From: Candidatus Micrarchaeota archaeon
Lineage (GTDB): Archaea; Micrarchaeota; Micrarchaeia; Burarchaeales; Fermentimicrarchaeaceae
DNA length: 64,000 bases
NCBI GenBank assembly: GCA_026396385.1
Contig: JAPLWV010000051.1
Location: 26,143 to 90,142, forward strand
Direction of reading: 5' to 3'
Shown here: positions 11,427 to 30,610 of the stretch, one piece after another
Numbering within the stretch: position 1 is the first letter of the stretch
Layout: each line of letters begins with the position of its first letter
Notes under the pieces: model-generated
The model's input: only the letters and a program-made list of their open reading frames with translations
What the model was told of the DNA's origin: nothing
Databases searched by the model: none
Position numbers and translations under genes: made by a program

Positions 11427-11978
11427 ATGGGTTTATTGTCACCTTTTTTAAGAAAATGGAGAATAAGGAAAGCGTCGAGATGGGTACAGGGCAAAAGAAT
11501 TCTCGATTGTGGATGTGGCGATGGTAGTCTATTGGGTATAATCGGCGAGAATGTGGATTACCTGGGAGTGGACATAAACGAAAAAGTGATAAATGAGGCG
11601 AAAGGGAGATACAGGGGGGCAAACTTCATTTTGCTTAATGTGGAGAAGGGAGATTTGGGGAGGTATGGTAAATTCGACTCGGTAGTTGCATGTGCATTAT
11701 TGGAGCATTTGAACAATCCTAAAAAATTTATATCCAAAATTGTCAAACTTCTCTCTAGAGATGGGAGAATTATAATCACAACTCCAGCACCCATTTCACA
11801 TAATATATTGGGGTATGGGTCTACTATTGGAATTTTCGAAAGGGAGGCTTTTGAAGAGCATAAACATTACTTGATTTACGATGATTTTAGGAGGATGGCA
11901 AAAGAGTTAAAACTTACTATAAAGCATTATGAGAGATTCCAATTTGGCCTAAACCAACTTGTTGTCCTATCAAAATGA
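11427..11978 (+). CDS. class I SAM-dependent methyltransferase
   Basis: Motif I ILDCGCGDGSLL; post-I acidic residue (LGVDIN). Confidence 0.75.
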   Translation: MGLLSPFLRKWRIRKASRWVQGKRILDCGCGDGSLLGIIGENVDYLGVDINEKVINEAKGRYRGANFILLNVEKGDLGRYGKFDSVVACALLEHLNNPKKFISKIVKLLSRDGRIIITTPAPISHNILGYGSTIGIFEREAFEEHKHYLIYDDFRRMAKELKLTIKHYERFQFGLNQLVVLSK

Positions 11979-12061
11979 GGATGCTGGGAGCTGCTGCTTC
12001 TGAATAACGAAAATTGGATTCCTAGCTAAGATTTAAATCCTTAGACATAGAATGAGATGCT

Positions 12062-12589
12062 ATGAATAGATACTCCAGAATTCTGTTGATAGCAGCGGAA
12101 GTAATCCTAGGCTCACCAATCTTCTGCTTGCCTGTCTTCAGCCATCTAAAAAACGGCTTCTTCAGATTAGTTCTGAACGCGGACATAAATTTGAGTGTCG
12201 GCGACAGCACATTCATAATCCCGATACATGCAAGTGAGAGAAGTTTCATAAAAATTGGCAGTAATGTTAGGGTTGAGAGAAATTCTTTGGTGGATTGGAG
12301 CGGTGAACTCGAGATGGGATCGAATGTCACAATATCACAAGGAGTTTTCATCTATACCCACAAGCATCAATTCGCTGCGGGAAAGGGAGTCGGAGAAGCA
12401 TCGGCGACTAGTATGAGAATTGGCAGTAACGTTTGGATTGGCGCAAGGTCGATAATACTGCCTTCCGTAGAATGCATCGGGGACAATGTGATGATAGGTG
12501 CAGGCTCCGTGGTTACTAAAAGTGTTGAAAGCGGCGCCGTAATTGTCGGAAATCCTGCGAAAAATATTAAGGAGATAACACTCAGTTAG
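12062..12589 (+). CDS. hexapeptide-repeat (left-handed beta-helix) sugar O-acetyltransferase
   Basis: Tandem hexapeptide repeats IGSNVWIGARSIILPSVECIGDNVMIGAGSVVTKSV, as in the WbbJ / maltose or galactoside acetyltransferase family. Confidence 0.75.
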   Translation: MNRYSRILLIAAEVILGSPIFCLPVFSHLKNGFFRLVLNADINLSVGDSTFIIPIHASERSFIKIGSNVRVERNSLVDWSGELEMGSNVTISQGVFIYTHKHQFAAGKGVGEASATSMRIGSNVWIGARSIILPSVECIGDNVMIGAGSVVTKSVESGAVIVGNPAKNIKEITLS

Positions 12590-12657
12590 TAAGAAGCATA
12601 ATAAGCACATCTCGAATTTGCAAGAGTAAGATTGGCTTCATAAAGGAAGGGGAAGAG

Positions 12658-14103
12658 ATGAAGACAAGCGTGAGCAAAGGCACTTTTTATTTGCTGGTAG
12701 CACAAGCTATCTTTCTAGGGGTAGGATATGCAGTCCACATAGCTTTAGGGAGATTGATGGGCCCTGAACTGTATGGTGTCTTTGGAGTTGTTCTTGGGTT
12801 GATGTCTATTGTGATGTTGATTCCCAGCTCGGGAGTTCCAATTGCAGTTTCAAAATTTATATCCTGCAATGAGAAGAGTGCTGGAAGCATACTGAAGGAG
12901 AGTCTGAAGATACAGCTTATTCTATGCACAGTAATCTTTCTGATTTATTTCTCATCTGCTGGCCTGATAGCAACCGCACTTTCAGATGAGAGGTTCATCC
13001 TTTACGTGAGGCTCACCTCTGTCTCGATATTCCTTGTTGGCATCAGCAGCGTTTATTCTGGCTATTTGAACGGAGTTAGGCACTTCGGGAAGCAGAGCCT
13101 TGTTTCGATAGCGCATTCCCTGACGAAATTGACCGCCATTCTCTTAGTAGTGATGGGGCTGGGGGTTCTGGGGGCTGTTTTTGGGTACCTGCTCTCCTAT
13201 CTTGCAGCCCTCCTACTGGCGCTCTGGTTTAGCAGATTGGTAACGGGGGATGGAAAATTTGAATGGAGAAAGATTCTGTATTTCTCAATGCCTGTGATAG
13301 CGTACTCAGTTTTCAGCAATCTCTTGCCGAATATTGACATACTCATGATTAAATCTTTACTTAGGAATGACAGTTTAGTCGGCTACTACAACTCAGCCTC
13401 AACAATCGGGAGGCTGTTCTACTTCTTGGTGGGAACTCTGTTTGCAACCCTCATACCGGCCATTTCGGTTTCGATAGCAGCCGGGAACCAGAAAAAGGCC
13501 AACAGATACGTCACGAGTTCCATAAGGTACAGCCTTATGCTGCTCATTCCAATAAGCCTAGTGGTGAGCGCAACTGCGAGCGATTTGGCCTCTTTTGTCT
13601 ATTCAAGCGCATTTGCGCAGGCGGGAGAGCCCCTCTCCATCTTCATTTTCGGCATAAGCTTTTTCACTTTATTGAGTGGATTAGCTAGTATGCTGATCGC
13701 AGCGGGGAAACCGAAGCACTGTATGCTTATACTCGGATTGGTCTGTCTGCTCTCTCTTGCGTTGAACTTTCTCTTAATACCAGTGATGGGAATAAAGGGA
13801 GCAGCTCTGGCATCAACAATTAGCAGTTTTGTGGGCTTGGTTGTTGCCTACTATTATGTCACGGGAGAATTCGGATGTCTTATCAGCATGAAGTCTCTTG
13901 CTAGAATATCACTAGCTTCCCTCTTGATCTACCTGCCGAGCCTATACATTGTACTCCCAAACAAATGGCTCCTTCCACTAGAATATGCTTTTCTTTTCGG
14001 GTTTTATTTTGTAGTTCTAATTGTAATTAAAGAATGGAGGAAGGAGGATTTTGAGATAATTAAGAAACTTGTTCCGAAAAGATTCAGTACAGGTATCCTT
14101 TAA
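12658..14103 (+). CDS. MOP-superfamily oligosaccharide flippase (Wzx/AglR-like polysaccharide biosynthesis protein)
   Basis: 481 aa, about 12-14 TM helices, and the overall topology and length of the Wzx/RfbX family, within a glycosylation cluster. Confidence 0.7.
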   Translation: MKTSVSKGTFYLLVAQAIFLGVGYAVHIALGRLMGPELYGVFGVVLGLMSIVMLIPSSGVPIAVSKFISCNEKSAGSILKESLKIQLILCTVIFLIYFSSAGLIATALSDERFILYVRLTSVSIFLVGISSVYSGYLNGVRHFGKQSLVSIAHSLTKLTAILLVVMGLGVLGAVFGYLLSYLAALLLALWFSRLVTGDGKFEWRKILYFSMPVIAYSVFSNLLPNIDILMIKSLLRNDSLVGYYNSASTIGRLFYFLVGTLFATLIPAISVSIAAGNQKKANRYVTSSIRYSLMLLIPISLVVSATASDLASFVYSSAFAQAGEPLSIFIFGISFFTLLSGLASMLIAAGKPKHCMLILGLVCLLSLALNFLLIPVMGIKGAALASTISSFVGLVVAYYYVTGEFGCLISMKSLARISLASLLIYLPSLYIVLPNKWLLPLEYAFLFGFYFVVLIVIKEWRKEDFEIIKKLVPKRFSTGIL

Positions 14104-14115
14104 TTGCGGGGCAAT

Positions 14116-15441
14116 TCATGTGGAGTTTATTTCTTTAGCTTTGTTCATAGCGCTTCTTATGCAAGCAGCCATGTTCATGTACTTAAACTCCGCGAATCTG
14201 CCGCAGGATTCGATTCTTCTCTTCTTAAGGAATTTGAACACTTTTGAACTATTCTTATTGTAATCCAAATCGTATATTACGTAAGCGTACTCCGACCTTC
14301 TGACATTCCTGTAGGATATCTTCGAATTCCTTGCGAAACCCAGCCTCTCCAAATCCTTTACGACTTGCTTCAAAATTTTATCATCGCTCTGTTTCAACAA
14401 CGGGTCGTTGGGGAGGCAGGTTATCTCCACCAGTACGGATGACTTGCCTTCTGGAGCGACATACCTGGAGAAATTGAACGGGAAGCTCAACCTGTTGAAG
14501 TCGCCATCTTCCTCAGCAGGTATGTACATCCAAGAGATGTTGTTTATCCTCGGCTCGTCAATCCCAACCATCACCGTGATGAGGGAGTTGTATTTCAGGT
14601 TGTTTTTCGCTTCTTTCACATCCTTCGGCACTCCATCCATGGAATCTATCAAGTCAGGAATGGGCATGCAGGAAACAAGCTTGTCATATTTTCTCTCCTC
14701 CTTTCCATCTGAAACAGTGAATTTACCTCCTTCCCTTGCAACTGACTTCACTTCAAAATTGTATGTAATCTTATCTCTGAGCTTCTCCTCCATCGGCTTA
14801 ACAAGCGCATTTATTCCTCCCTGAATTGGATAGTAGAAAATGAGGTTCTGGTGGTATCCTTCAGTTTTGATTCCAAGAGACGATTTTATTATGTCTTCAG
14901 CAGGCGGCATGGGTATCCCGCTTGCCAGCAACTCCAGAGACAGTTTTCCAGGAGGGTAATTCCAGATTTTTCTGTTGTAGGGGATGAGGTATTTCTCAGT
15001 TATCCCTTTCCCGAATGTATAATACATCCACTCCTGGAAATTTGTTGGTTTCTTCACCTTTCCCTTGCTCACTTCTATGAGGTTTTTAATAAATGATGAA
15101 ATGCATTCGTAATTGTCCTGCTTGGGCAGCTGGTAAAGACCATTCTCAAACGGGTATTTGATGTACCTTCCCTTGAAAAGAATCTTGGAGTTTCTCTTCC
15201 TTTTCACCCAGTTTCCGTGAAGCAATTTTCGGTATAAATTGAAAACATCCTTGTCCTTTGTGAATATCACATGAGAGCCGCCATAGTCAAAGGTGAACCC
15301 TTCCTCGGTCAGGCTTCTGCAGAGTCCTCCGCACTCAGAATTTTTCTCCAATATCTCAAAATCCTTCTTGAGATGGAAACCCAAAGTCAAACCGCTTAAG
15401 CCGCCACCAAGAATGCCGATTTTCATGGAAAAACCTTTCAT
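14116..15441 (-). CDS. glf: FAD-dependent UDP-galactopyranose mutase-like flavoprotein
   Basis: N-terminal Rossmann IGILGGGLSGLT. Glf-like blocks ECGGLCRS...YGGSHVIFTKDKDVFNLY and C-terminal GRFAEFKYMNMA (compare E. coli Glf GRLATYKYYNMD). The true start is possibly MKIGIL at 15426. Confidence 0.55.
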   Translation of the reverse strand: MKGFSMKIGILGGGLSGLTLGFHLKKDFEILEKNSECGGLCRSLTEEGFTFDYGGSHVIFTKDKDVFNLYRKLLHGNWVKRKRNSKILFKGRYIKYPFENGLYQLPKQDNYECISSFIKNLIEVSKGKVKKPTNFQEWMYYTFGKGITEKYLIPYNRKIWNYPPGKLSLELLASGIPMPPAEDIIKSSLGIKTEGYHQNLIFYYPIQGGINALVKPMEEKLRDKITYNFEVKSVAREGGKFTVSDGKEERKYDKLVSCMPIPDLIDSMDGVPKDVKEAKNNLKYNSLITVMVGIDEPRINNISWMYIPAEEDGDFNRLSFPFNFSRYVAPEGKSSVLVEITCLPNDPLLKQSDDKILKQVVKDLERLGFARNSKISYRNVRRSEYAYVIYDLDYNKNSSKVFKFLKKRRIESCGRFAEFKYMNMAACIRSAMNKAKEINST

Positions 15442-17390
15442 TTTACAACCTTATAAATTTTAACCTCTCCAGCATCCTTGACCAGTTCTAGATAGGGTAT
15501 CGTTGAGTTCGTGTACATGAGATTGAAGAAGACCCTGTTCTCTGTCTGCATGGGCATCCTTATGAAGAGATCCGCGAACATGAAGAGATAATCATCATTG
15601 AATTCAACTCCGCCGAGTGCACTCGTGAAGTACAGGTTTTTGTCAGTAAACGCACCAAAATCCTTGTAGTAGACCTTCCTGCCACCCGTATATTCATCCC
15701 AGGCAACATTTTTGATGGGGTCGTAGTATGTTCTAAACCCTGTGCCGAGTTTTGCGGAGTATAGGCCACCTGCTCGTGAAGGTGGAGCCATGCTGAATTC
15801 TATTTTTTCATTCAGGAATTTCTCCGAACTACCTATCCTCGTGAGGTAACCCCTGCTCACCACAACATAACTCACATTATATCTCTCCAGTATATCGTTG
15901 GCTTTATCACCATTATTCGTTCCAAAGAATATCATCTGGTCATCAAATCTGCCTTGGGGCTGGTTGTTTACCACTGTCTTTCTTTCTGCGATTCCATTTA
16001 CCCACTGCGAGTAATCCCACCAGCTCATCACCACAGCATCCTGATTGGAGTTGTTCTTCAGCCACTGCATTGAAGTATACCAGTCGTCCGAAACAGAGTG
16101 GTGCACTATTTGCGGGGGGTAGAAAAGCACTGCGGAGAGTATCATTACTGGTATGAAAACGTCTTTTTTGACTGATGAGCTTGCAATATCAGAAAACCTG
16201 TTTAGCAGGTATGCCGAGAATATTGAGACGAAGATGCCGGCATATTGGAGGAATCTTATTGCAGTGGAAGCCAGCAATGCGAGGAGGGCGAAGGATACAA
16301 GGAAGAGCAGGGTTGCCCTATTGAATTTCTTTAAGGAGGTTAAGAATAGAATCAGCCCGACCAGGAAGGGCAGAAGCTGCAATCCATAATGCTGGGATAT
16401 GTTTGTTAGGGTGGGTGTTTGCAGTTCGGCTACACTTTCGAGGTATATACCTTTCTCCCTCAGACCCATGTAGGCCAGTCCCGCATCCACAATTGAGCTC
16501 TTGGAGAGAATCAGGAAGGGAAGCGAGCATAGCAGCACTATTGCGAGCAATATCACGAACGCGTTTCTGTTATTTTCAAGCCTAAGGGCCACATAGGAGA
16601 AAAGGGCTGAGAACAGCATCATCCCCAGGAAGGGCATTATGCCAAAACCATACCAGAGAGAAGCAATGACGGCAAAAACAATTGACAGGACAAGAAAACC
16701 GATGGTAACATCCTTCTCCAGAAGCTTTAGGTATGGGTTGAAGAGGGAGATGGCTAGCATGAATGCAGAAAGGATGACCACAACCAAGGGAAAGCCTGTC
16801 CAAGTGAGAGCGAACAGTCCAGTGGAAACCCCTGCCAGTGCATAATAGACTAGCTTTTCTTTATTTTCCATGAATCTCTGGTCTGATGGGGGGGATGAGG
16901 AGGAAGCAGTGGGCTTCTTTATAGCTTTTACGAAATAGAAGAATGCCGAGGATACGAAGAGATAATCCAATGGGTCATGGTCGGAGTAGCCGAAGTAGGT
17001 TGTTCCTTTAAAAATTGGGAGAACTGCCAGCAGCATTACTGCCAGCATTGCAGTCCTCTCATCAAACACTTCCCTTGTGAACAGAAAGACGAATATGAGA
17101 GCAAGCGCAGCAGCCAGCAGTGGGTATATCTGCGAGACCAGCATCACATTCAAGCCTGGAAGATGCGCTGGGATGGCAAGCAGGTAATGCAGAAGGGGTG
17201 GGTATAGTATATTCTCACCCATGTTTGACAGCGGGTCGAAAGACGGCCTTGTGCCCTGCTCAAATGTGTATTCCGCTAGCCGGTAGTGGTACCAGGGGTC
17301 GAAGTCTCGCAGGTATGGAACAGTTGTAGTTGTAAGGGCACCTACCACAATAACAAGAAAGATGGCTGCTAGGAGTTCAATTTTCATCAA
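15438..17390 (-). CDS. aglB: AglB/STT3-family oligosaccharyltransferase, short paralogue (650 aa) with WWDYS variant of the WWDYG motif
   Basis: 13 TM N-terminal domain. The EL1 segment is RDFDPWYHYR. C-terminal globular part has VMSWWDYSQW. Confidence 0.7.
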   Translation of the reverse strand: MMKIELLAAIFLVIVVGALTTTTVPYLRDFDPWYHYRLAEYTFEQGTRPSFDPLSNMGENILYPPLLHYLLAIPAHLPGLNVMLVSQIYPLLAAALALIFVFLFTREVFDERTAMLAVMLLAVLPIFKGTTYFGYSDHDPLDYLFVSSAFFYFVKAIKKPTASSSSPPSDQRFMENKEKLVYYALAGVSTGLFALTWTGFPLVVVILSAFMLAISLFNPYLKLLEKDVTIGFLVLSIVFAVIASLWYGFGIMPFLGMMLFSALFSYVALRLENNRNAFVILLAIVLLCSLPFLILSKSSIVDAGLAYMGLREKGIYLESVAELQTPTLTNISQHYGLQLLPFLVGLILFLTSLKKFNRATLLFLVSFALLALLASTAIRFLQYAGIFVSIFSAYLLNRFSDIASSSVKKDVFIPVMILSAVLFYPPQIVHHSVSDDWYTSMQWLKNNSNQDAVVMSWWDYSQWVNGIAERKTVVNNQPQGRFDDQMIFFGTNNGDKANDILERYNVSYVVVSRGYLTRIGSSEKFLNEKIEFSMAPPSRAGGLYSAKLGTGFRTYYDPIKNVAWDEYTGGRKVYYKDFGAFTDKNLYFTSALGGVEFNDDYLFMFADLFIRMPMQTENRVFFNLMYTNSTIPYLELVKDAGEVKIYKVVK

Positions 17391-18448: not shown

Positions 18449-18534
18449 GAGAGAATTAGGGTAGATGATTATTAAATTTAGTACATGCTTAGCTGATAAT
18501 CCTGAGCTGATTGTTTTTCAACTCCGTGTATAAA

Positions 18535-18789
18535 TTATTGGTAAACCTTCTTTCTGTGCCCCAGGTCAATCACATACAGCTTCTTTCCTGCATCATCCAA
18601 ATCTATGAAAACCCGGTAGTCGCCAACCCTCAGCTTCCATATCTTTACAGAAACTAGCCTGTCGAGGAAGAGGTGAGGCGAATCCCTTATCTCCTCAACT
18701 TTCTTTATAATTCTTGAAACTGCAACCTTGTCAAGGGAGGAGAGGGATTTCTCTGCCCTCTTTGTCCAGACAACCTCGTAGGGCATCAC
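18535..18789 (-). CDS. type II toxin, RelE/ParE family
   Basis: 84-aa basic protein ending KLRVGDYRVFIDLDDAGKKLYVIDLGHRKKVYQ (RelE fold signature). Overlaps the upstream antitoxin ORF by 4 bp (ATGA). Confidence 0.75.
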   Translation of the reverse strand: MMPYEVVWTKRAEKSLSSLDKVAVSRIIKKVEEIRDSPHLFLDRLVSVKIWKLRVGDYRVFIDLDDAGKKLYVIDLGHRKKVYQ

Positions 18790-19028
18790 TCAACACCCAG
18801 TTTCCTCAGCAACTCCTTTGTGGAGAGCACCCTGCCCTCTCTAATGTCTTTCCTGCCCTCCTCTATTCCTTTTACTGCCTCCTCGCTCAGCTGCTCCTTC
18901 TCAGCCATTTCGAACACCTTCATAAGCTTGTTCAGTATCTCATCATATGTTTCGCGCGTGTACTCCTTGAGGGAGAGAAGCTTCTCCCGCGTTTCCTTCT
19001 GAATCTGGATTGTCGTAAGCTCAGCCAT
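18786..19028 (-). CDS. antitoxin of RelE/ParE pair
   Basis: 80-aa acidic helical protein immediately upstream of, and translationally coupled to, the RelE-like toxin. Confidence 0.6.
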   Translation of the reverse strand: MAELTTIQIQKETREKLLSLKEYTRETYDEILNKLMKVFEMAEKEQLSEEAVKGIEEGRKDIREGRVLSTKELLRKLGVE

Positions 19029-19182
19029 AAAACCACCAGCAGTTATATACTACCATATAAGTTATTATACCGCAGCTATATAAACCTTCCTCCTGCTACC
19101 GAGCTATAAAATTCGGCATGCAAACGTTTTTATACTATAAGTATCATGAATACCGTTATAAAAAGCATAAAAAGGTGAACGT
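19029..19182. promoter_or_regulatory. divergent promoter region of the two toxin-antitoxin operons
   Basis: 154-bp AT-rich spacer. TATA-like tttatatag (minus-strand sense, about 19075-19084) and cgtttttatac (about 19124-19134) sit about 45-55 bp from the respective start codons. GGTGA Shine-Dalgarno 5 nt before ATG 19183. Confidence 0.4.
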
Positions 19183-19443
19183 ATGAATGTGAATGTGCAG
19201 TTCAAAGGGCTTATGGAGGAGATTCTGGAGGAAGCAGAGCGGAGAGGGATAGCAAAGACAAAAACAGAGGCTCTGAGGCTTGGAGTGCTGGAATTGAACA
19301 ACAGATACCACCTACTGGAGCACAGAGCAGAGGAGATTGAAGACCTGCAGGATACAAAAGAGCTCGAAGAGATGAGAAGTGCTGTCAAAAAAGGAAAAGC
19401 AAAGCTTATCAGCGAAAAAAAGATGCTGGCAATGCTGAAGTGA
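19183..19443 (+). CDS. antitoxin of second RelE/ParE pair
   Basis: 86-aa charged helical protein. Stop lies 4 nt before the toxin start. Confidence 0.6.
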   Translation: MNVNVQFKGLMEEILEEAERRGIAKTKTEALRLGVLELNNRYHLLEHRAEEIEDLQDTKELEEMRSAVKKGKAKLISEKKMLAMLK

Positions 19444-19447
19444 TCCG

Positions 19448-19699
19448 ATGCCCTATGAGCTTTTTTTCGATGCAGACTTCAGCAAAGATGTTGACAGACT
19501 GGACAAGAGCGTAAGAGAGCAGCTCAGAAAAATAATACTTAAAATAAAGCAAAACCTCTATGTTGGCAAAAGGCTTAAGGGCTACTCCAACTTCTTCAGG
19601 GTGAGATTTGGAATTTTTAGAATTATCTATTTTGTCGAAGGCGATAAAATTTACTTCAAAAGAGTTAGAAAAAGAGATGAGGTTTACAGGAATGTGTGA
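19448..19699 (+). CDS. type II toxin, RelE/ParE family (paralogue of 18535-18789)
   Basis: 83 aa. Starts MPYE like the other toxin, with a shared ...FRVRFGIFRIIYFVEGDKIYFKRVRKRDEVY C-terminal pattern. Confidence 0.7.
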   Translation: MPYELFFDADFSKDVDRLDKSVREQLRKIILKIKQNLYVGKRLKGYSNFFRVRFGIFRIIYFVEGDKIYFKRVRKRDEVYRNV

Positions 19700-19790
19700 G
19701 AGGGGAAAGCAGGCTTGATATATCCCACGAAACCGTAAAAATTGGTAAAAGTAAAGGGTAACGTATAAAATTTAGTAGTCAAAATTCTAG

Positions 19791-22211: not shown

Positions 22212-25200
22212 TTAGTATATTTTTATGGTTTTGGAGTTTACTGCTTCGCTGTTGCCTACGTTGTCGGTGCTATTGTATGTTATATAGCTCGTCCCTTTGG
22301 TTGAAACATAGATTTTGATGAGTCCTTTGTATGAGTCGTTTATTTCGGTTGCTGATAACGCCCTGTTGAATATCTTCACTTCGTCTATTGTGCCGTTAAA
22401 CCAACCACTATTCCCCCTTGCACAACCGATATATGGGGTATAGATAAGACTTGCGACACCTCCGAGGGCTAATGAATTTGAAGTTACATAAGCCCCGTTT
22501 TCCCATAAGGAGAAGTTATTGCCATCCCTCACCCCGCATACATGAAGCCATACATTATTTGTGACTGAATTACCACGCAAATCAATCGCATAACCATACA
22601 TATCCCTTACATGAAACCTAGTCACATAATTCCCGCTAGTATTCATTAATTGTATCGAATAGGATTCCCCGATTGATGTCGAATTTGTTTTGGCGAATAT
22701 TACAAAGGTCGTACTACTGTCTTGCGGAAGATTGGTTGGATATACCCAAGCACAAATGCTAAAGTTACCAGAACCGAAATTAAAGAGAGAGGAATTCGTG
22801 ATATTCACAAGGTCATTCTTCCCGTCAAAACTCAACGCAGGTCCGTATTTGCCTCCTGTCCAGGTTGCACCACTGATGGTTCCGGTATTCCCATTCCCGC
22901 TTGAGTCGTTTGCTGTGGTTCCTGTCCCTTCGTTGAGATTCCAGTAAGCCCGTAGATTGGATATGTCAGCAATCTGCTGAGATGTTAGGGCGGTGCCGTA
23001 TATCTTCACATCGTCTATCGTGCCGTAGATCACACTCCCTCCTTGCTGTCTTCCTATGTAGAATTTGGCAATGCTTGGCCGGATTGCTGAAATTGCCTGC
23101 GGGCTACCGCTCTGAACACCATCAATATAGATTATCGCATGCGTCCCATTCCATACTGCAGCAATGTGGTGCCAGTTGGTGTCTATTGTTGCTGTGGAAG
23201 TGGCTGATATTGTTGCGCTATCATCGGATTTTCTCAGTGTGAATGATATGGTGTTACCAGTGTTTTGGTTGATTGCATAACTGCGTTGTCCAGCAGCGGC
23301 ATTCCATCTGCTGAGTATTGTCCTTGCACTTGTCAAACTTGTGTTTGATGTCTTGAACCAGAGAGAGATGGTCATAGCTGTGAAATCCCTTAAAATAGTT
23401 GAATTGCCACAATAGACATTGTTAGTGGATAAACCATTAAAGCGCAATGCATTTCCGTATTTGCCTCCTGTCCAGGTTGCACCACTGATGGTTCCGGTAT
23501 TCCCATTCCCGCTTGAGTCGTTTGCTGTGGTTCCTGTCCCTTCGTTGAGATTCCAATAACCAAGTAACGAATAGTTGTACATATTAGCAATTTCGGTTGC
23601 TGATAACGCCCTGTTGAATATCTTCACATCATCTATCGTGCCATTGAACAAAGTGCCGCTTGCTGTGTTTCTACCTATATAAGTAGTAGTTATCGACGAT
23701 TGCAGATTGCTGAATGCTACTATATTATTTGTTTGGAGGATGCCATTAAGATATGTGTATATGTGCGTTCCATTCCAAACCCCAACGATATGATACCAAC
23801 TATTTGTTGCAGTTATGGCAGAATCTATACAGGAAGTAGCCCATACTGCATCGCTTATATTTCTTGTCATAAAGCAGAATTTGTTTGCTGTGTCCTGAAC
23901 TATCTGATATGAACGTTGTCCAGCAACAGAATTAGCTCGTGCAACTATCGCCTTTGCTGAAGCATAATTCAATTGTGCAGGATTTATCCATACACTAATC
24001 GTCATAGCAGTAAAATTCCGCAAAATAGTTGCATTCCCAACATTCACGTAACTACTTCCATTAAAACTCAATGCATTTCCAATCCTCCCTGATGTCCAAC
24101 TTGCGCCTATGATGGTTCCGGTATTTCCATTCCCGCTTGAGTCGTTTGCTGTGGTTCCTGTCCCTTCGTTGAGATTCCACAGGCCTACTAGACCGCTTTC
24201 TGTGGAAATTGTTGGCGTGCATAAGTTGCTTGTATCTATGCAATAGTGGGTTATTGCACAGCCGCTTGTTGCATCTGTGCAGAGTAAGGTCACGTTGACA
24301 TAGGAAGAGTTAGTCCATGTGTTTTCTGTGTAATTTGAGCCGTCGCTCTCTACTAAGGATGCAGAAGTTGAAGGTGGTGTTTTATCAAAAATTACTGAAC
24401 TCGAGTCAGTTGTGCTGGTCACCCGTACTCCGGAGATATATGAATGACTTATGAAATCAATTGTGAAATTCACTGTCCCTTCGCTATCACCGGGAGCCAT
24501 TGTATAAGTTGCCGTATAAGAATTCCCTCCAGTGCTGGATACCGAAGCTGTATGACCTGCGATTTTAACAACAGGGTTATTGGACAATGCTTTGTCTGCG
24601 GTAGATGAAAGATTTATGCTGTTACCTACTTTCGCCTTGCTTGAGTCAGAGTTGTTTGATTTTATTTTGACAGAGGTTAGCACAGGTGGAACCACGTCAT
24701 CTCCGAAAAAATGAACTCTCATGCTTAGGCCTTTGGCACTGTTTACAAAAACTGAAACCTGTGTATTATTCCCCCAGTTGTCAATTGAGCTCGGAGTTGT
24801 CGTATCGTTGAAATATTGTTTTGCGGCATTACTCGAGTAAGCAGCATCTGTAACATCCAATACGTATTCAGGCACAATTCCCTTTTGTACGCAAGCGTTT
24901 ATTGTATTGTTTGTCCTGCTGCATGGAACATGCCCGTATATGTACCAGTTGTCTATATGCCATATGACAGTTCCCTCACCTGGGATATACGCATCAAATC
25001 CAACTTTTTCTCTATTCTCTACTATATAATACTCTTTATCAACATTCAGAATTGAATTGTTGATGATAAACGCTTGGCTTTTATTCTCAAGATTTTTCAC
25101 GTAATATGAGATGGGGTTACCGGTCAGCTGGGTTGCCTTTAACCATCCCAGGTCTATCTTGCACCAGGCGCTCATATGAGTTGGAACAGTGCCGTCATAG

Positions 25201-26240
25201 CTTGGACCTCCCCATGAACCACCATCCATAAGGTCCCAAGTATCGACTACCCAATCTCCAGAATATGTATTATACAAATCAGGCAGACCTAAATCATGCC
25301 CAAACTCATGCGCAAAAACTCCGGTTTTACCGTACTCGGGGTCCATTGTGTATAGGTATACTCTTTTGCCGTCAACCAGCTGACCTCCGGGAATAACCCA
25401 GCTGTGGGACCATATGCTTGTATCTGGGGGGTAGCCTTCCTCCTGCCCATGACCGCTATGGATTATTATGACGTGATCCGCATAGCCATCACTATCCGTA
25501 TCATAATCTGCAAAATTAACATTTGGATTTGCCAGCAGGATCGCCTCTCTTGTAAGCTCATAAATATAGACTGGCCAATTCGGCCCCGGTTGACCAGTAT
25601 CTATATATCCATACCCATCAGTTGCGTAGTACTCCACTGGGTGACTGCTTGTATACCAGCCAAGCACAGTGCCTGTCAGGTTTAGCTTGCCATAGGATAC
25701 TTCATTGTAATAACTCGTTAGGCTAAGTGGGTTGGATGCATTGAACAGCAAATTCTGAAAATACGCTGTATCATGGGACGGATCATGAGCCTGGTTAGTA
25801 AACTGTATGAGGATAACTACCACTTTATGGGTGCCTGTTGGCGGAGGAGCATATTGAGGCTGATCTTCCATAGACGCCCTTCTAGTTGTTGGAACAGGAA
25901 TGTCACTTTCTATTGAAAGTTTGGAAGAGTCAATGGCTTTGAAAATGCTTTTATGTATACCTATTGATTGAGGTGACACATGACCGACTCTCAAATCAAC
26001 GGACTGGTTCAAGAGTTCATTTTGTGTGACGTATGTCCACCATTCACCAGTTTTTTGGATAGCATAGCCAGTTTCAGTTTCATACCAGTATCCATTCTCA
26101 TCGCCTCTTAGATAGCCCTTGAATGTTGTATTGTCTGGTTGTTGGAATTCATGTAGGATGGGTCTGGCTGGTACTGCGTAGCAGATACCTGATAACAAAA
26201 ATATTGAAATGAGTATAGTCAGCTCAGTTAGTTTTCTCAT
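22212..26240 (-). CDS. secreted M6-family (immune inhibitor A-like) zinc metalloprotease with three C-terminal LamG / concanavalin-A-like lectin repeats
   Basis: Signal peptide MRKLTELTILISIFLLSGICYA. Zinc site VFAHEFGHDLGLPDLY (HExxHxxGxxD of M6/InhA). Three repeats, each about 205 aa, beginning WNLNEGTGTTANDSSGNGNTGTI.GA.WT and ending GTIDDVKI(F/Y). Start taken at the second ATG (26240). Confidence 0.75.
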   Translation of the reverse strand: MRKLTELTILISIFLLSGICYAVPARPILHEFQQPDNTTFKGYLRGDENGYWYETETGYAIQKTGEWWTYVTQNELLNQSVDLRVGHVSPQSIGIHKSIFKAIDSSKLSIESDIPVPTTRRASMEDQPQYAPPPTGTHKVVVILIQFTNQAHDPSHDTAYFQNLLFNASNPLSLTSYYNEVSYGKLNLTGTVLGWYTSSHPVEYYATDGYGYIDTGQPGPNWPVYIYELTREAILLANPNVNFADYDTDSDGYADHVIIIHSGHGQEEGYPPDTSIWSHSWVIPGGQLVDGKRVYLYTMDPEYGKTGVFAHEFGHDLGLPDLYNTYSGDWVVDTWDLMDGGSWGGPSYDGTVPTHMSAWCKIDLGWLKATQLTGNPISYYVKNLENKSQAFIINNSILNVDKEYYIVENREKVGFDAYIPGEGTVIWHIDNWYIYGHVPCSRTNNTINACVQKGIVPEYVLDVTDAAYSSNAAKQYFNDTTTPSSIDNWGNNTQVSVFVNSAKGLSMRVHFFGDDVVPPVLTSVKIKSNNSDSSKAKVGNSINLSSTADKALSNNPVVKIAGHTASVSSTGGNSYTATYTMAPGDSEGTVNFTIDFISHSYISGVRVTSTTDSSSVIFDKTPPSTSASLVESDGSNYTENTWTNSSYVNVTLLCTDATSGCAITHYCIDTSNLCTPTISTESGLVGLWNLNEGTGTTANDSSGNGNTGTIIGASWTSGRIGNALSFNGSSYVNVGNATILRNFTAMTISVWINPAQLNYASAKAIVARANSVAGQRSYQIVQDTANKFCFMTRNISDAVWATSCIDSAITATNSWYHIVGVWNGTHIYTYLNGILQTNNIVAFSNLQSSITTTYIGRNTASGTLFNGTIDDVKIFNRALSATEIANMYNYSLLGYWNLNEGTGTTANDSSGNGNTGTISGATWTGGKYGNALRFNGLSTNNVYCGNSTILRDFTAMTISLWFKTSNTSLTSARTILSRWNAAAGQRSYAINQNTGNTISFTLRKSDDSATISATSTATIDTNWHHIAAVWNGTHAIIYIDGVQSGSPQAISAIRPSIAKFYIGRQQGGSVIYGTIDDVKIYGTALTSQQIADISNLRAYWNLNEGTGTTANDSSGNGNTGTISGATWTGGKYGPALSFDGKNDLVNITNSSLFNFGSGNFSICAWVYPTNLPQDSSTTFVIFAKTNSTSIGESYSIQLMNTSGNYVTRFHVRDMYGYAIDLRGNSVTNNVWLHVCGVRDGNNFSLWENGAYVTSNSLALGGVASLIYTPYIGCARGNSGWFNGTIDEVKIFNRALSATEINDSYKGLIKIYVSTKGTSYITYNSTDNVGNSEAVNSKTIKIY
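22843..22943. repeat. about 101-bp coding-sequence repeat, copy 3 (LamG repeat head)
   Basis: Identical to 23454-23554 over about 101 nt (ccgtatttgcctcctgtccaggttgcaccactgatggttccggtattcccattcccgcttgagtcgtttgctgtggttcctgtcccttcgttgagattcca). Confidence 0.8.
23454..23554. repeat. about 101-bp coding-sequence repeat, copy 2
   Basis: See copy 3; offset 611 bp. Confidence 0.8.
24111..24179. repeat. about 69-bp coding-sequence repeat, copy 1 (1 mismatch)
   Basis: gatggttccggtatttccattcccgcttgagtcgtttgctgtggttcctgtcccttcgttgagattcca; offset 625 bp from copy 2. Confidence 0.75.
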
Positions 26241-26667
26241 ATTGATACACCATCCTTTCTCCTTTACTAATCGAGACATTTGCTTGAATTATATCACCGA
26301 CGGCAATTCCAGATAGATTTACATCTGTATTACTTGGACCCAGTGGCGGCATATCTACGGTAGTAGCTGATGTTCCCCATTGAAATACGAAATTGTTGAT
26401 ATCGCTTTTTTCCAATTTTATCGTGCCATCGCGTTTATCTGAATCATAAGAGATAAGGTCCAGAATCTCAAGCCTTGCGCTTTGCGTTTGAACATTCAAA
26501 ACTCTCGCCCTAATAACTGCCGAATCAGTAAGTGGTTTTGGAGGTATGACTTCTGTTGAATCGTTAGATCCCGTAGTACTATTTGGGTTAATTGTATTTG
26601 GCGAAAGTGACTCTTTAGTAATACAGCCTGAAAAAAATAGGATTGCACAGACTAGTGAAACCAGCAA
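26224..26667 (-). CDS. hypothetical lipobox/secreted protein
   Basis: N-terminal MLVSLVCAILFFSGC hydrophobic segment ending in a lipobox-like SGC. Ser/Thr/Asn-rich linker. Confidence 0.5.
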   Translation of the reverse strand: MLVSLVCAILFFSGCITKESLSPNTINPNSTTGSNDSTEVIPPKPLTDSAVIRARVLNVQTQSARLEILDLISYDSDKRDGTIKLEKSDINNFVFQWGTSATTVDMPPLGPSNTDVNLSGIAVGDIIQANVSISKGERMVYQYEKTN

Positions 26668-27960: not shown

Positions 27961-29661
27961 TCAGCTGGCAGTTGGGTTCGTAACTCTTCCTATGAATAGG
28001 ATGTTACCGGTATCCCTCTGCTGTATGATGAAGATGAATGGGTGGTCTGCTCTGAATACCGGCTTTGGAGTTGCGGGTATGGCCGTCATAGCCATGATTA
28101 CGGCAGTTGCTGCAGCTGCTTCTGTTCCAGTCTCATTCACCTCAATAAATGCCTGGTGTATGACATTGCTGATATACAGGTTTCTCGTTCCATCCATGCC
28201 GGAAAAGTCCGCTTCGTTTGGATCAAACGCCTTTTCGATTCCCATATTCTTTAGGGTGTCAACCATGAGGTACTTAGTCTCAAACTTAAATCTAGGCATA
28301 TAAACACCGGCAAGCTCTGTTTCGCTTAGCATAGCCTTCAATTCATTTAAGTTGTCTGTAGTGAGTGACTGTTCAAGATCCTGCAGATTGTCTTCTTTTG
28401 GAAGAATTATGAGCATGGATACATCATCACCTTGGTAAGGCAGCTCAAGAATTTGAGTTTCGTTTGTTTCTGCGTAATTGAATCTCAGGGGAACTGACTC
28501 GCCATCAGATGTCTTCACATAGTCGCCGTCCAGAGACATCATCTTAACTTTTACGGTCTTTGTTGGGGTTACTCTAAAGTCTTGGTCAGTAGTATCGTTT
28601 AAAAACGGTATAAGCCAGTGCGCTTTGAAATAGACCGCGTTTGTAAGAACCAAACGAGTCAACTCGTCGATGGCTCCCGGCGGTATTATATCTTTAATTT
28701 TGTTGTTTGTCTGTCCCTCCACCCATTGGTTTATAGTCACGCGGGAGTTTTCGGTATCACCCTTAAAGTCGAGATTTGTCACATTTCCGCCGTAATATTC
28801 GTCTACTAAACTGAAATAATCGTCTAAGAACTTGTAATCCTTCTGCGCCCATAATGCATTTGCAGTGCTGAGGTTGTATTCTTTGTCTTTCTTGTTTATC
28901 TCATTGTAAACTCCTGCGAAACCTAGTCTTCGTGTATTATTATCCGGGGGGAAATGAAAAACAGCTTGCATTTCTTCTGCTGTTTGGCCTCTTGCACCCT
29001 CATAGGTCATTGCCAACGCAGTTGAGATGCTGTAGGGAGAGAATAACAGATTGTCATTCTGGAACTTGTACTGCGAGTAGAGGTCAAATGCAAACTGATT
29101 GTTAGCGTTTACTACATTGTTTACGGCTTCTGTGATTGTTGCGTTATTGGGAGATGAAGATGTATTTACGCATTTGAGTTTATCGCTATCCCAGCATCTT
29201 CCCTCTCCGCAATCGCAAGCTTTCACTTCATGGCTGTTGCTTGGGGAGCAACCGCAGGCTCCTATGAGGCAGGTATTCGGGAAATCACCAACCGAATTGC
29301 AGCATAGGTGAGTTGTAACATTTCCACCCCCCATCCTACATTGATTTTCGGTATACCAGCTTCTGTTAAACCCAATGCTCTCGCAGAACCCTTCGGACTG
29401 GCAGCTGATTGAACTGCAAGCCGCGCATGGCGGGCATACCACGCACTGGCTGGGGCATTTATCAACAGAATAATTCTGGCAGTTGGTTACATTTGGGCAG
29501 GGAGCAAATTCGCAATTTGGACCGACTCTCCCAACAGATGAGCCGTCAGGGCAAACCTTGGCTTCTTCCGTGCATGCTCTAGGTGGGTTTATCTGCGTGC
29601 ATCCAGCCCACAAGAATAAAGTTGCAACAAACAATAGAACTATGAGAGTTTTTGTTTTCAT
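27961..29661 (-). CDS. serpin (serine protease inhibitor) with about 150-aa Cys-rich N-terminal domain and lipobox signal
   Basis: Serpin blocks FSPYSISTALAMTYEGARGQTAEEM, NAVYFKAHW, hinge/RCL ETGTEAAAATAVIMAMTAIP, FRADHPFIFIIQQ and FIGRVTNP. Signal MKTKTLIVLLFVATLFLWAGC. Residues about 20-165 contain about 30 Cys. Start moved to ATG at 29661; the 44 upstream codons lack signal-peptide features. Confidence 0.85.
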   Translation of the reverse strand: MKTKTLIVLLFVATLFLWAGCTQINPPRACTEEAKVCPDGSSVGRVGPNCEFAPCPNVTNCQNYSVDKCPSQCVVCPPCAACSSISCQSEGFCESIGFNRSWYTENQCRMGGGNVTTHLCCNSVGDFPNTCLIGACGCSPSNSHEVKACDCGEGRCWDSDKLKCVNTSSSPNNATITEAVNNVVNANNQFAFDLYSQYKFQNDNLLFSPYSISTALAMTYEGARGQTAEEMQAVFHFPPDNNTRRLGFAGVYNEINKKDKEYNLSTANALWAQKDYKFLDDYFSLVDEYYGGNVTNLDFKGDTENSRVTINQWVEGQTNNKIKDIIPPGAIDELTRLVLTNAVYFKAHWLIPFLNDTTDQDFRVTPTKTVKVKMMSLDGDYVKTSDGESVPLRFNYAETNETQILELPYQGDDVSMLIILPKEDNLQDLEQSLTTDNLNELKAMLSETELAGVYMPRFKFETKYLMVDTLKNMGIEKAFDPNEADFSGMDGTRNLYISNVIHQAFIEVNETGTEAAAATAVIMAMTAIPATPKPVFRADHPFIFIIQQRDTGNILFIGRVTNPTAS

Positions 29662-29719
29662 GTTTATGGTATTATAAAAAGAACTTAAAAATGTTCCCAA
29701 TTTGTTCGGTGAAAACCGA

Positions 29720-30610
29720 TCAAAAATTATTTTTGAGCCTTTCAACTGCCTCTTTCCATGTTGGGACGTTCGTCTGCGCTCCATGCTTTTCAACTATGAA
29801 TGAGGACACAGATGACGCAACTTTCGCGCACATTTTCAAATCCTCGCCTCTCAGAAATGCTGAAAGGAAGGCTGCCCTGAAAGAATCCCCTGCGCCTGTC
29901 GGGTCGACAAACCTAGCCTTCACTGCAGGCACATCAAAACTCCCATCTCTTGTGGTGACAGAACTGCCTTTTGCTCCTTTTGTCGTTATGATGTATTCAA
30001 CAGGGAACGCGAAAAGCTCCTCCTTGCTTCTCATTCTAAGAAGCGTGAGAATTCTCCGCATCTCAAACTCATTGCATGTGAGGAACTTTGTGTTTTTTAG
30101 GACTCCTTCAAGCTCTTTCTTTCCATAGGCAATTATGTCATAGCCCGGGTCGAAAGAAACCCCGGGATATTTTTTGGCTATCCTCATGCTGAAATCAGGG
30201 TCGCCATTCGCCAGGTGCACAATATCGTTTTTCCCCATTTTCAATTTTGGGACTGGTGCCCTGTGGAAAAGCTCGGCAACTCCCCAGTAGAAGAATGACA
30301 TCTGCCTATGCCTGGAGTCATTGAACATGAATGCCCTTGGGGTTTGGCCACCTTTCACGATTTTCAGGTGAATTAGATCAACCTTGTTGAGCCTGAGATG
30401 TCTTTCATAGCCAGAACCTCTGAAATCCCCGCCAACGAACGAGATTAGAGATGTCTTCTGACCAAGCTTCGAGCATACAGCTGAAAAATTTCCTGCAGCC
30501 CCTCCAAAAAGCTCGAAGTATCTTTTTATGTATGTGGTGGAGTTCGGCTTTGGAAATTCCTTCACTTCGCCTATGTTATCATAGACAACCTGTCCGACAG
30601 AGTATATCAT
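29720..30610 (-). CDS. PfkB-family (ribokinase-like) carbohydrate/nucleoside kinase
   Basis: C-terminal DPTGAGDSFRAAF (DTxGAGD anion-hole motif); N-terminal GG sugar-binding motif region. Confidence 0.75.
   Translation of the reverse strand: MIYSVGQVVYDNIGEVKEFPKPNSTTYIKRYFELFGGAAGNFSAVCSKLGQKTSLISFVGGDFRGSGYERHLRLNKVDLIHLKIVKGGQTPRAFMFNDSRHRQMSFFYWGVAELFHRAPVPKLKMGKNDIVHLANGDPDFSMRIAKKYPGVSFDPGYDIIAYGKKELEGVLKNTKFLTCNEFEMRRILTLLRMRSKEELFAFPVEYIITTKGAKGSSVTTRDGSFDVPAVKARFVDPTGAGDSFRAAFLSAFLRGEDLKMCAKVASSVSSFIVEKHGAQTNVPTWKEAVERLKNNF

Follow-up and report, generated by a model that had tools for sequence, protein, structure and literature searches.

A large protease gene was studied in a 64-kb window, i.e., the whole stretch of 64,000 nucleotides (nt) analysed here, from contig JAPLWV010000051.1 of a Candidatus Micrarchaeota archaeon. 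The gene is likely to encode a Sec-secreted, probably N-glycosylated metalloprotease of the M6 (InhA-like) family, whose array of three Laminin_G_3 (LamG) modules was assembled by recombination anchored on the conserved head and tail of the modules and has a targeting role. By body identity, the three modules (R1, R2, and R3) are heterologous cassettes from different old LamG lineages, not recent mutual copies. Three independent ortholog pairs break directly after the head.

All coordinates are positions in the window, and the protease gene lies on the minus strand. Its open reading frame (ORF) was listed at 22212..26279 (-). The probable start is 26240 (-), since the ortholog P0002 begins at the equivalent of M14, and the product has 1342 amino acids (aa). 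The features of the gene and its upstream partner are as follows.

26224..26667 (-): small ORF of 147 aa bearing a lipobox, 'FFSGC'; conserved upstream partner of the protease
26172..26240 (-): signal peptide, aa 1-23, MRKLTELTILISIFLLSGICYAV; only hydrophobic segment of the protein, same N-terminus in P0002, cleavage site inferred
25854..26171 (-): N-terminal beta-rich domain and disordered linker, aa 24-129, from the AlphaFold2 (AF2) model
24696..25853 (-): M6 (InhA/thuringilysin-type) catalytic domain with its conserved C-terminal subdomain, aa 130-515, from TIGR03296, PF05547, AF2, and Foldseek
25272..25310 (-): zinc-binding and catalytic motif HEFGHDLGLPDLY, with H311, E312, H315, G318, D321, and Y323
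24387..24695 (-): Ig-like spacer domain, aa 516-618, with a beta-rich pattern and a predicted local distance difference test (pLDDT) score of 40-55 in AF2
24195..24386 (-): N-terminal half of a putative split OmpL47-type/Ig-like domain, aa 619-682, from the NF047446 match of the spliced flanks
23580..24194 (-): LamG module R1, aa 683-887, PF13385, AF2 pLDDT ~90; shared head, own body, and 'terminal-type' tail FNRALSATEI
22968..23579 (-): LamG module R2, aa 888-1091; 'S8-protease type' body and 'internal-junction' tail YGTALTSQQIADISNLR
22341..22967 (-): LamG module R3, aa 1092-1300; R2-type head, foreign body, and terminal-type tail
23454..23555 (-): 102-nt head of R2, identical to the R3 head
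22842..22943 (-): 102-nt head of R3, identical to the R2 head
22212..22340 (-): C-terminal half of the putative split OmpL47-type/Ig-like domain, aa 1301-1342, and the stop codon; NF047446 positions 36-68

Laminin_G_3 (PF13385) was recognized in three stretches of the protease (E 2.1e-70). In the AF2 model of the C-terminal 730 aa, each module reached a pLDDT of ~90. The fusion to three LamG modules, proposed earlier in a sequence-only reading of the window, is confirmed by these two results, and three LamG/ConA-like jelly-roll modules that follow the enzyme are confidently predicted to fold. Foldseek matched them to neurexin LNS, laminin LG, the receptor-binding domains of clostridial neurotoxins (BoNT/TeNT Hc), and the lectin domains of trans-sialidases. 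The best single-domain structural match of the LamG model was 5hon_A, carbohydrate-binding domain 4 of the arabinanase AbnA, with a template-modelling (TM) score of 0.80 and a root-mean-square deviation of 2.7.

The head peptide WNLNEGTGTTANDSSGNGNTGTI was found in three copies, i.e., 24179-24111, 23555-23487, and 22943-22875. The copies are spaced by 612 and 624 nt, equal to 204-208 aa, in frame. The threefold head and the repeat length of about 205 aa were thus read correctly before; the head has 23 residues, not 22. The heads of R2 and R3 share an identical run of 102 nt, where 101 had been counted, and R1 shares a 53-nt run with each of them. Outside the heads, the nucleotide identity of the repeats is ~40-55%.

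R2 and R3 use the same codon at every position of the 23-aa head (23/23), where 8.5 matches would be expected from the codon usage of the window (P ~1e-11), and R1 showed 22/23. The maximum chi-square test placed a breakpoint between R2 and R3 at nt 105, with 1 difference before and 286 after it; for R1 against R2 or R3, the breakpoint was at nt 73. None of 300 permutations was as high in either case. This identity at the nucleotide level is far beyond chance or protein-level constraint. Gene conversion or recombination, which had been offered as one class of explanation for the DNA-identical heads, is upheld by the codon identity and the sharp breakpoint.

A conserved head of ~35 aa and a tail of ~20 aa are common to the three modules. 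When 61 multi-LamG proteins were aligned, conservation was strongest in the head (GLVGYWxFNEGSGTxAxDSSGNGNxGTL) and in the tail (FxGxIDDVRIYNRALSAxEI). Therefore, the conservation of the head peptide is a family property and is not specific to this gene.

The module bodies, compared without head and tail, showed only 23% aa identity between R2 and R3, 29% between R1 and R3, and 46% between R1 and R2. P0128, a protease with S8 subtilase, fn3, and beta-helix domains, has one LamG, and the R2 body shares 77% aa identity with it. Whole R2 is 81% aa and 78% nt identical to LamG modules of Candidatus Fermentimicrarchaeum limneticum Sv326. The nearest relative of the R3 body was the LamG of P0258/L002, with 42% aa identity. 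The distance between R2 and R3, set against the closeness of R2 to the S8 modules of other genomes, indicates that the body lineages are older than the array of this gene. The earlier view of one duplicated unit whose remaining parts have diverged does not agree with these values.

The junction between R2 and R3 was aligned to an R2-R2 tandem of Sv326. The nucleotide identity was 0.82-0.93 across the R2 tail, the linker YGTALTSQQIADISNLRAY, and the R3 head. It fell to 0.3-0.5 right after 'GKYG' in R3 and came back to 0.90 in the terminal tail. Thus, R3 has the frame of an R2 array with a foreign body. The R2 tail and linker are also collinear with the R2-R2 junctions in L004 and L005, which are S8 proteases of other Micrarchaeota.

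The ortholog locus L001 gave the same kind of pattern. It is 87% identical to the window at the nucleotide level from the small upstream ORF to position 24065, inside the R1 head, and DNA homology restarts at 22394, in the R3 tail. Between these points, the L001 ortholog has one unrelated LamG (27% body identity), whereas the gene of the window has three. The C-terminus of the protease is identical to that of P0002 at 25 of 38 aa. Similarly, P0128 and P0258/L002 are 70-93% identical through the enzyme, the beta-helix, and the head, and only 10-35% identical in the LamG body.

The number of R2-type modules varies in the S8 orthologs. P0128 has one, L005 has two (95% nt identical), and L004 (Sv326) has at least three, with no difference between copies 1 and 2 over 615 nt. 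The record of L004, positions 1-1842 of CP058998.1, the Sv326 'complete genome', begins in the middle of the LamG tandem array. Its circularisation point lies in a repeat, and the copy number may be uncertain.

The Micrarchaeota S8 proteases of the subtilase/fn3/beta-helix/LamG type, i.e., P0128, P0258, the ORF at 3487-7353 of L005, and L004, are the closest comparison for the array. They are secreted, and their LamG modules, which are of R2 type or R3-like, have head, tail, and linker in common with the M6 array; the number (1, 2, or at least 3) and type of LamG vary between orthologs. The M6 protease differs from them in its zinc catalysis, as they use serine. Their arrays are C-terminal and not nested, and are homotypic with copies of 95-100% nt identity.

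A recent in situ tandem triplication of one LamG unit was weighed against the origin by recombination. In that case, the bodies would have been diversified fast by positive selection and the head kept by purifying selection. The regular spacing of 612 and 624 nt with modules in frame agrees with it, and recent whole-module tandem duplications do occur in relatives, as the identical copies of Sv326 show. However, R2 is much closer to modules in different proteins of other genomes (77-81%) than to its neighbour R3. Purifying selection on a peptide cannot yield 23 identical codons of 23, and where selection alone acts, i.e., in other genomes and other taxa, heads are 66-91% identical at the nucleotide level. 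A recent derivation of the R2-like modules of S8 proteases from this gene is incompatible with their 74-78% nt identity. The triplication is largely refuted and is regarded as very improbable.

The sequence-only reading had also named very strong sequence-level constraint as a cause of the identical heads. Heads of different genomes are 88-93% identical in aa and only 77-91% identical in nucleotides, with drift at synonymous sites. In L002, the identical head peptide is encoded by DNA of 86% nt identity over 134 nt. In a gammaproteobacterial gene with five LamG, the heads are only 66-76% nt identical, and other multi-LamG loci are without DNA repeats. DNA identity limited to the head was not seen as a general property of multi-LamG genes in the other taxa checked. 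Constraint on the head DNA was rejected on these values. The exact 53-nt core of the head had 0 matches in GTDB representative genomes, so the source genome itself is not in that collection, and a degenerate head pattern had one match among metagenome contigs, i.e., L002.

A related possibility is that the head DNA itself is functional and under constraint, as the template/variable-repeat boundary of a diversity-generating retroelement (DGR), as a regulatory or RNA element, or as the site of a site-specific recombinase. The identity does stop sharply after 102 nt, and DGRs are frequent in DPANN and candidate phyla radiation (CPR) genomes, where some DGR targets match Laminin_G_3 (PMC5758913). 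However, no reverse transcriptase, integrase, or recombinase was found near the gene among the scanned ORFs of the window. The mismatches are without adenine bias, and the bodies differ at ~50-60% of nucleotides, unlike the result of point mutagenesis. Neither an RNA element nor a tRNA was detected at the repeats by Rfam and ARAGORN over the whole window, and synonymous drift of the heads is seen between genomes. Programmed mutagenesis, by a DGR or otherwise, was rejected for lack of a reverse transcriptase among the scanned ORFs and of adenine bias in the mismatches. We give hardly any credence to a functional DNA element. A scan with sigma-70 promoter and terminator models gave matches no commoner than in shuffled sequences; such a scan is not applicable to archaea.

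An assembly artefact was also considered. The true M6 gene may have fewer LamG modules, and a de Bruijn assembler with k below 102 may have threaded a module, e.g., R2, from an S8 array of the same genome through the 102-nt head. The reading frame would be kept automatically. The R2 tail, linker, and next head are exactly like an internal junction of the LamG arrays of S8 proteases, the ortholog has one LamG only, and the protein is known from a single contig. Related assemblies also break or circularise in LamG arrays, i.e., P0259 is partial on a 3.3-kb contig and CP058998.1 starts inside an array. However, standard reads of 150 nt and the largest k used by common assemblers both exceed the 102 nt of the repeat, and the R1-R2 junction shares an identical run of 53 nt only. 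R2 is just 74-78% nt identical to every S8-type module found, leaving no donor in evidence. Both ends of the array are anchored natively to flanks conserved in the ortholog, and modules do vary in number and type between independent assemblies. An artefact is therefore considered unlikely. No S8/LamG protease of this metagenome-assembled genome (MAG) itself was identifiable among the search matches. In general, MAG assemblies break, circularise, and may mis-join at LamG arrays with DNA-identical heads or modules, and domain counts need read support.

The LamG array is probably nested in another domain. After the catalytic region, the protein consists of aa 516-618, the segment 'DKTPPSTS...THYCID' (aa 619-682), the LamG block (aa 683-1300), and the last 42 residues, '...YITYNSTDNVGNSEAVNSKTIKIY'. 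The Ig-like spacer of aa 516-618 had no significant family match in profile searches. In the native protein, only the last 33 residues matched NF047446, an OmpL47-type beta-barrel profile, at positions 36-68 with 25.4 bits. When the LamG block was deleted in silico, the joined flanks matched positions 5-68 of 68 (E 2.9e-9), with 37.2 bits against a cutoff of 40. P0002 with its LamG removed gave the same flank match, and the N-terminal half alone gave no match to NF047446. The spliced flanks were collinear with the contiguous domain of the LamG-less ortholog P0003, weakly (BLASTP E 0.1), and matched P0004 in the first 16 residues only. Among PDB sequences, no meaningful match of the spliced flanks was found. 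These profile matches suggest that the LamG block probably sits in a loop of a split OmpL47-type/Ig-like domain.

The enzyme part was assigned to the M6 family by hidden Markov model search. TIGR03296, the M6 domain model, matched over profile positions 1-286 of 286 at aa 142-428, with 214.7 bits against a cutoff of 110.8. Peptidase_M6 (PF05547) matched with E 3.5e-29 and 102.4 bits against a cutoff of 22. The M6/InhA-type assignment made from the letters alone is supported, as both profiles are above cutoff with the HExxH region included. The protease is identical in sequence to the public protein MCX6776196.1, "M6 family metalloprotease domain-containing protein", Candidatus Micrarchaeota, which was seen on one 106-kb contig only. 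The gene is auto-annotated, and its family assignment is correct and public already. It is an ordinary member of two very large families, and both of its kinds, M6 proteases and the surface or secreted LamG proteins of DPANN, are known.

The motif HEFGHDLGLPDLY was found once, at aa 311-323. The residues H311-E312-F-G-H315-D-L-G318-L-P-D321 fit HEXXHXXGXXD. In an alignment of 74 M6 relatives, H311, E312, H315, P320, Y323, and M338 are invariant, and G318 and D321 are conserved in at least 90%. A HEXXHXXGXXD zinc site with Asp as the third ligand has been described for thuringilysins (PMC12237041). The conservation of H311, E312, H315, G318, and D321 therefore fits a zinc site of this type. M338, downstream of the zinc motif, is a candidate Met-turn, a hallmark of metzincins, as seen in the alignment. 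With HEXXHXXGXXD and the conserved Tyr and Met in place, the catalytic machinery is intact, and a zinc endopeptidase is predicted.

By sequence, the zymogen of Bacillus anthracis InhA (4YU5/4YU6) was the sole solved relative, and 4YU5 (E 5e-22) aligned across the active-site motif. In the AF2 model of aa 1-620, aa 28-100 formed beta strands with pLDDT 82-96, aa 101-128 had pLDDT below 50, and the catalytic part, aa 130-515, had pLDDT above 90. The top four PDB matches in Foldseek were chains of 4YU6 and 4YU5, with E 2.8e-22 to 2.4e-21 and TM scores of 0.48-0.50 for this multidomain query. The next matches were fragilysin and ADAM/TACE metzincins. The N-terminal region, aa 24-129, is a candidate pro-region as in the InhA zymogen, and such a role is possible by comparison with 4YU5/4YU6.

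The InhA/thuringilysin group (MEROPS M6; InhA2 4YU5/4YU6; Vibrio cholerae PrtV) has the same plan, i.e., a secreted multidomain zinc endopeptidase with HEXXHXXGXXD, Asp as the third ligand, and the conserved Tyr and Met. A region N-terminal to the catalytic domain and beta-sandwich domains C-terminal to it are also shared. However, the Micrarchaeota protease has Ig-like domains and three Laminin_G_3 modules instead of the VEG and MAM domains of InhA, and the identity is only ~18-25%. No match of PF20773 or PF20774 was found in the protease by profile search, and these domains are present in some M6 relatives. VEG and MAM mark the architecture of Bacillus InhA and not the M6 catalytic family. 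The host of the gene is archaeal (DPANN), and on the Micrarchaeota side there is a conserved small lipoprotein-like operon partner.

The M6 family had been described as known mainly from Bacillus, Vibrio, and a few methanogen-associated genomes. This is an understatement, as the M6 search gave 1895 proteins at E<=1e-10, including those of Altiarchaeota, ANME-2, Thermoplasmata, Poseidoniia, Sigynarchaeota (Asgard), and CPR bacteria. Fusions of M6 and LamG_3 were also found in P0002 and P0028. In archaea and DPANN, both M6 proteases and LamG expansions are frequent.

The protease was expected to be secreted, and its sole hydrophobic segment is indeed the N-terminal signal peptide. All LamG-bearing proteases compared, i.e., the window protein, P0002, P0128, and P0258, have only an N-terminal signal peptide and no membrane anchor, whereas the LamG-less M6 orthologs P0003, P0004, and P0005 have a C-terminal transmembrane helix. 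This suggests that the LamG modules replace the membrane anchor as a retention or targeting device, the two being alternative C-terminal solutions.

N-x-S/T sequons are abundant in the protease. It has 37, against a mean of 24.0 in shuffles that preserve composition, and 0.2% of the shuffles reach 37. Its sequon density is the highest in the window; the cytoplasmic proteins have 0-1 per 100 aa. The sequon-rich character noted before is thus real in comparison with shuffles. AglB/STT3 was found at 15438-17390 (-), 4.8 kb from the gene, and a second, divergent AglB/STT3 paralog at 47016-49685 (+), the two lying within 30 kb of each other. With these two genes, many glycosyltransferases (GTs), a flippase, and a cis-prenyltransferase in the window, the protease does adjoin N-glycosylation machinery, as the sequence-only reading had said. 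With signal peptide, sequon enrichment, and AglB, the protein fits what is expected of an archaeal N-glycoprotein and is probably N-glycosylated.

The archaeal neighbours are ABCE1, an eRF1/Pelota-family protein, diphthamide synthase, an archaeal CCA-adding enzyme, and the two AglB/STT3 genes. The archaeal origin assigned to the protein earlier is borne out by the NCBI label, Candidatus Micrarchaeota, and by ABCE1, the eRF1/Pelota-family protein, and AglB. Around the AglB pair, a cis-prenyltransferase, a geranylgeranyl-reductase-like gene, many GT2 and GT4 genes, nucleotide-sugar enzymes, a Wzt/Wzm-type ABC exporter, and a flippase were found. Most of the 64-kb window is a glycosylation island, and the protease gene lies between two glycosylation clusters.

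The ortholog locus L001 is likewise flanked by glycan-biosynthesis genes. Between the window and this locus, no synteny was found beyond the two-gene unit of small ORF and protease, and the proximity of AglB is therefore not a conserved linkage. At L003 3911-5927, the P0128 gene is followed by a 481-aa Polysacc_synt flippase and a methyltransferase, and the same gene types occur in the window at 11427-14103. Secreted LamG proteases seem to stand repeatedly in glycan-biosynthesis neighbourhoods in the Micrarchaeota lineage.

The small lipobox ORF (147 aa) and the start of the protease gene overlap by 17 nt. The ORF shares 92% identity with L001 9580-10017 and 48% (E 3e-43) with L016 3556-4017, an ORF that precedes the gene of the distant M6 ortholog P0003 and likewise overlaps it by 17 nt. 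At the compared loci (window, L001, and L016), the small ORF is always directly upstream of the M6 clade. Its family had 18 cluster representatives among 1.8e9 proteins, and some distant matches were multi-repeat proteins. No Pfam match was found for the small ORF. A role as anchor, inhibitor, or chaperone of the protease is speculative.

A serpin of 610 aa (PF00079, E 1e-120) was found at 27961-29793 (-), 1.3 kb upstream of the pair of small ORF and M6 gene. It has a Cys-rich N-terminal extension of ~225 aa and a signal-like segment and is sequon-rich. The presence of a secreted serpin beside a secreted metalloprotease may be a coincidence or a toolkit for extracellular proteolysis. In the glycosyltransferase cluster, two adjacent ORFs of 748 and 842 aa, at 5629-7875 (-) and 7886-10414 (-), had no Pfam match and are significantly enriched in sequons, with 11 each where ~5 are expected. 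A DUF6311 protein of similar size is at a comparable place in the ortholog locus. Between the eRF1/Pelota-family gene and ABCE1, a stretch of ~1.3 kb (18449-19790) lacks any ORF of at least 150 aa, and neither a tRNA nor an Rfam match was found in it.

In the favoured explanation, the M6 zinc endopeptidase would be co-transcribed with its small conserved lipoprotein-like partner. Its array would be the product of tandem amplification and of homologous recombination or gene conversion, for which the conserved head and tail were the anchors. The LamG modules would act as exchangeable targeting or retention domains that bind glycans or glycoproteins. Such binding would position the protease on its substrates, i.e., the surface of a host or neighbour cell, or the glycosylated envelope or matrix of the cell itself. 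Turnover of modules by recombination would change the binding specificity.

Some points weigh against this explanation. The flanks of the LamG block have pLDDT below 50 in AF2, which did not resolve the split Ig-like domain; the score of the spliced flanks is also just under the curated cutoff. AglB may be near simply because glycosylation islands are dense in a small genome. The contrast between LamG and the transmembrane anchor is one of 4 against 3 proteins, and a single MAG contig is the basis for module order and number.

It is also possible, with a lower probability than the favoured explanation, that the enzyme is a nutritional scavenging exoprotease. LamG would then only tether it to extracellular polysaccharide or to the glycosylated S-layer of its own cell, with no host recognition. 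The protease has no membrane anchor, the best single-domain structural match of its modules is the carbohydrate-binding module of an extracellular arabinanase (5hon_A), and the gene lies within glycosylation islands of the cell itself. Reports of extracellular peptidases are common for Micrarchaeota and other DPANN, where these enzymes are interpreted as serving nutrient acquisition (PMC8784108, PMC8561730). However, rapid turnover of cassettes between close relatives is a trait of recognition interfaces under diversifying pressure more than of housekeeping tethering. The scavenging enzyme differs from the favoured explanation in ligand only.

Among known systems, the multi-LamG surface proteins of DPANN and CPR share with the protease tandem LamG_3 modules of ~200 aa and the family-wide head and tail. 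Most of these relatives are LamG-only proteins, whereas the M6 array is appended to a protease, is probably nested in an Ig-like domain, is heterotypic, and has DNA-identical heads. LamG expansions are found in Micrarchaeota and other DPANN, and multi-LamG proteins are abundant in small-genome episymbionts, often in genomic islands; a role in host interaction has been proposed for them (PMC5498576, PMC10266531).

Clostridial neurotoxins, i.e., M27 zinc proteases with a LamG-like jelly roll in their receptor-binding region, also couple a zinc protease to lectin-like targeting domains. However, the M6 family is unrelated to M27, the Micrarchaeota protease has no translocation domain, and homology is not implied.

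A conserved junction between a stable N-terminal part and a replaceable C-terminal specificity module is a feature of CdiA (VENN), Rhs toxins (PxxxxDPxGL), and phage receptor-binding proteins. By analogy, their orthologs are near-identical before the junction and unrelated after it, as in the LamG proteases. In the LamG proteases, however, the junction is within the LamG fold itself, and the exchanged unit is bordered by conserved sequence at either end. Neither an immunity gene nor a silent store of cassettes was seen, and membership of these systems is not claimed.

A more far-reaching proposal can be drawn from this analogy, and it is put forward as a rather doubtful one. The LamG head and tail may be built-in recombination anchors, between which lectin-like 'specificity cassettes' are swapped between, and amplified within, M6 and S8 protease genes. 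Such swapping might give a host-dependent archaeon a modular means of re-targeting, with the small lipoprotein as anchor or inhibitor of the protease. It would resemble the exchange of receptor-binding domains in phage tail fibres and the C-terminal exchange in polymorphic toxins.

The recurrent exchange of cassettes among protease genes is a modestly interesting lead and not a new system. The three different LamG modules, the protease, and its small partner are reagents that can be tested. DPANN archaea, e.g., Micrarchaeota, depend on other cells, and the surface and secreted proteins that mediate this dependence are poorly known. A secreted protease in which lectin-like targeting modules are exchanged and multiplied among close relatives may plausibly take part in the recognition of a host or substrate.

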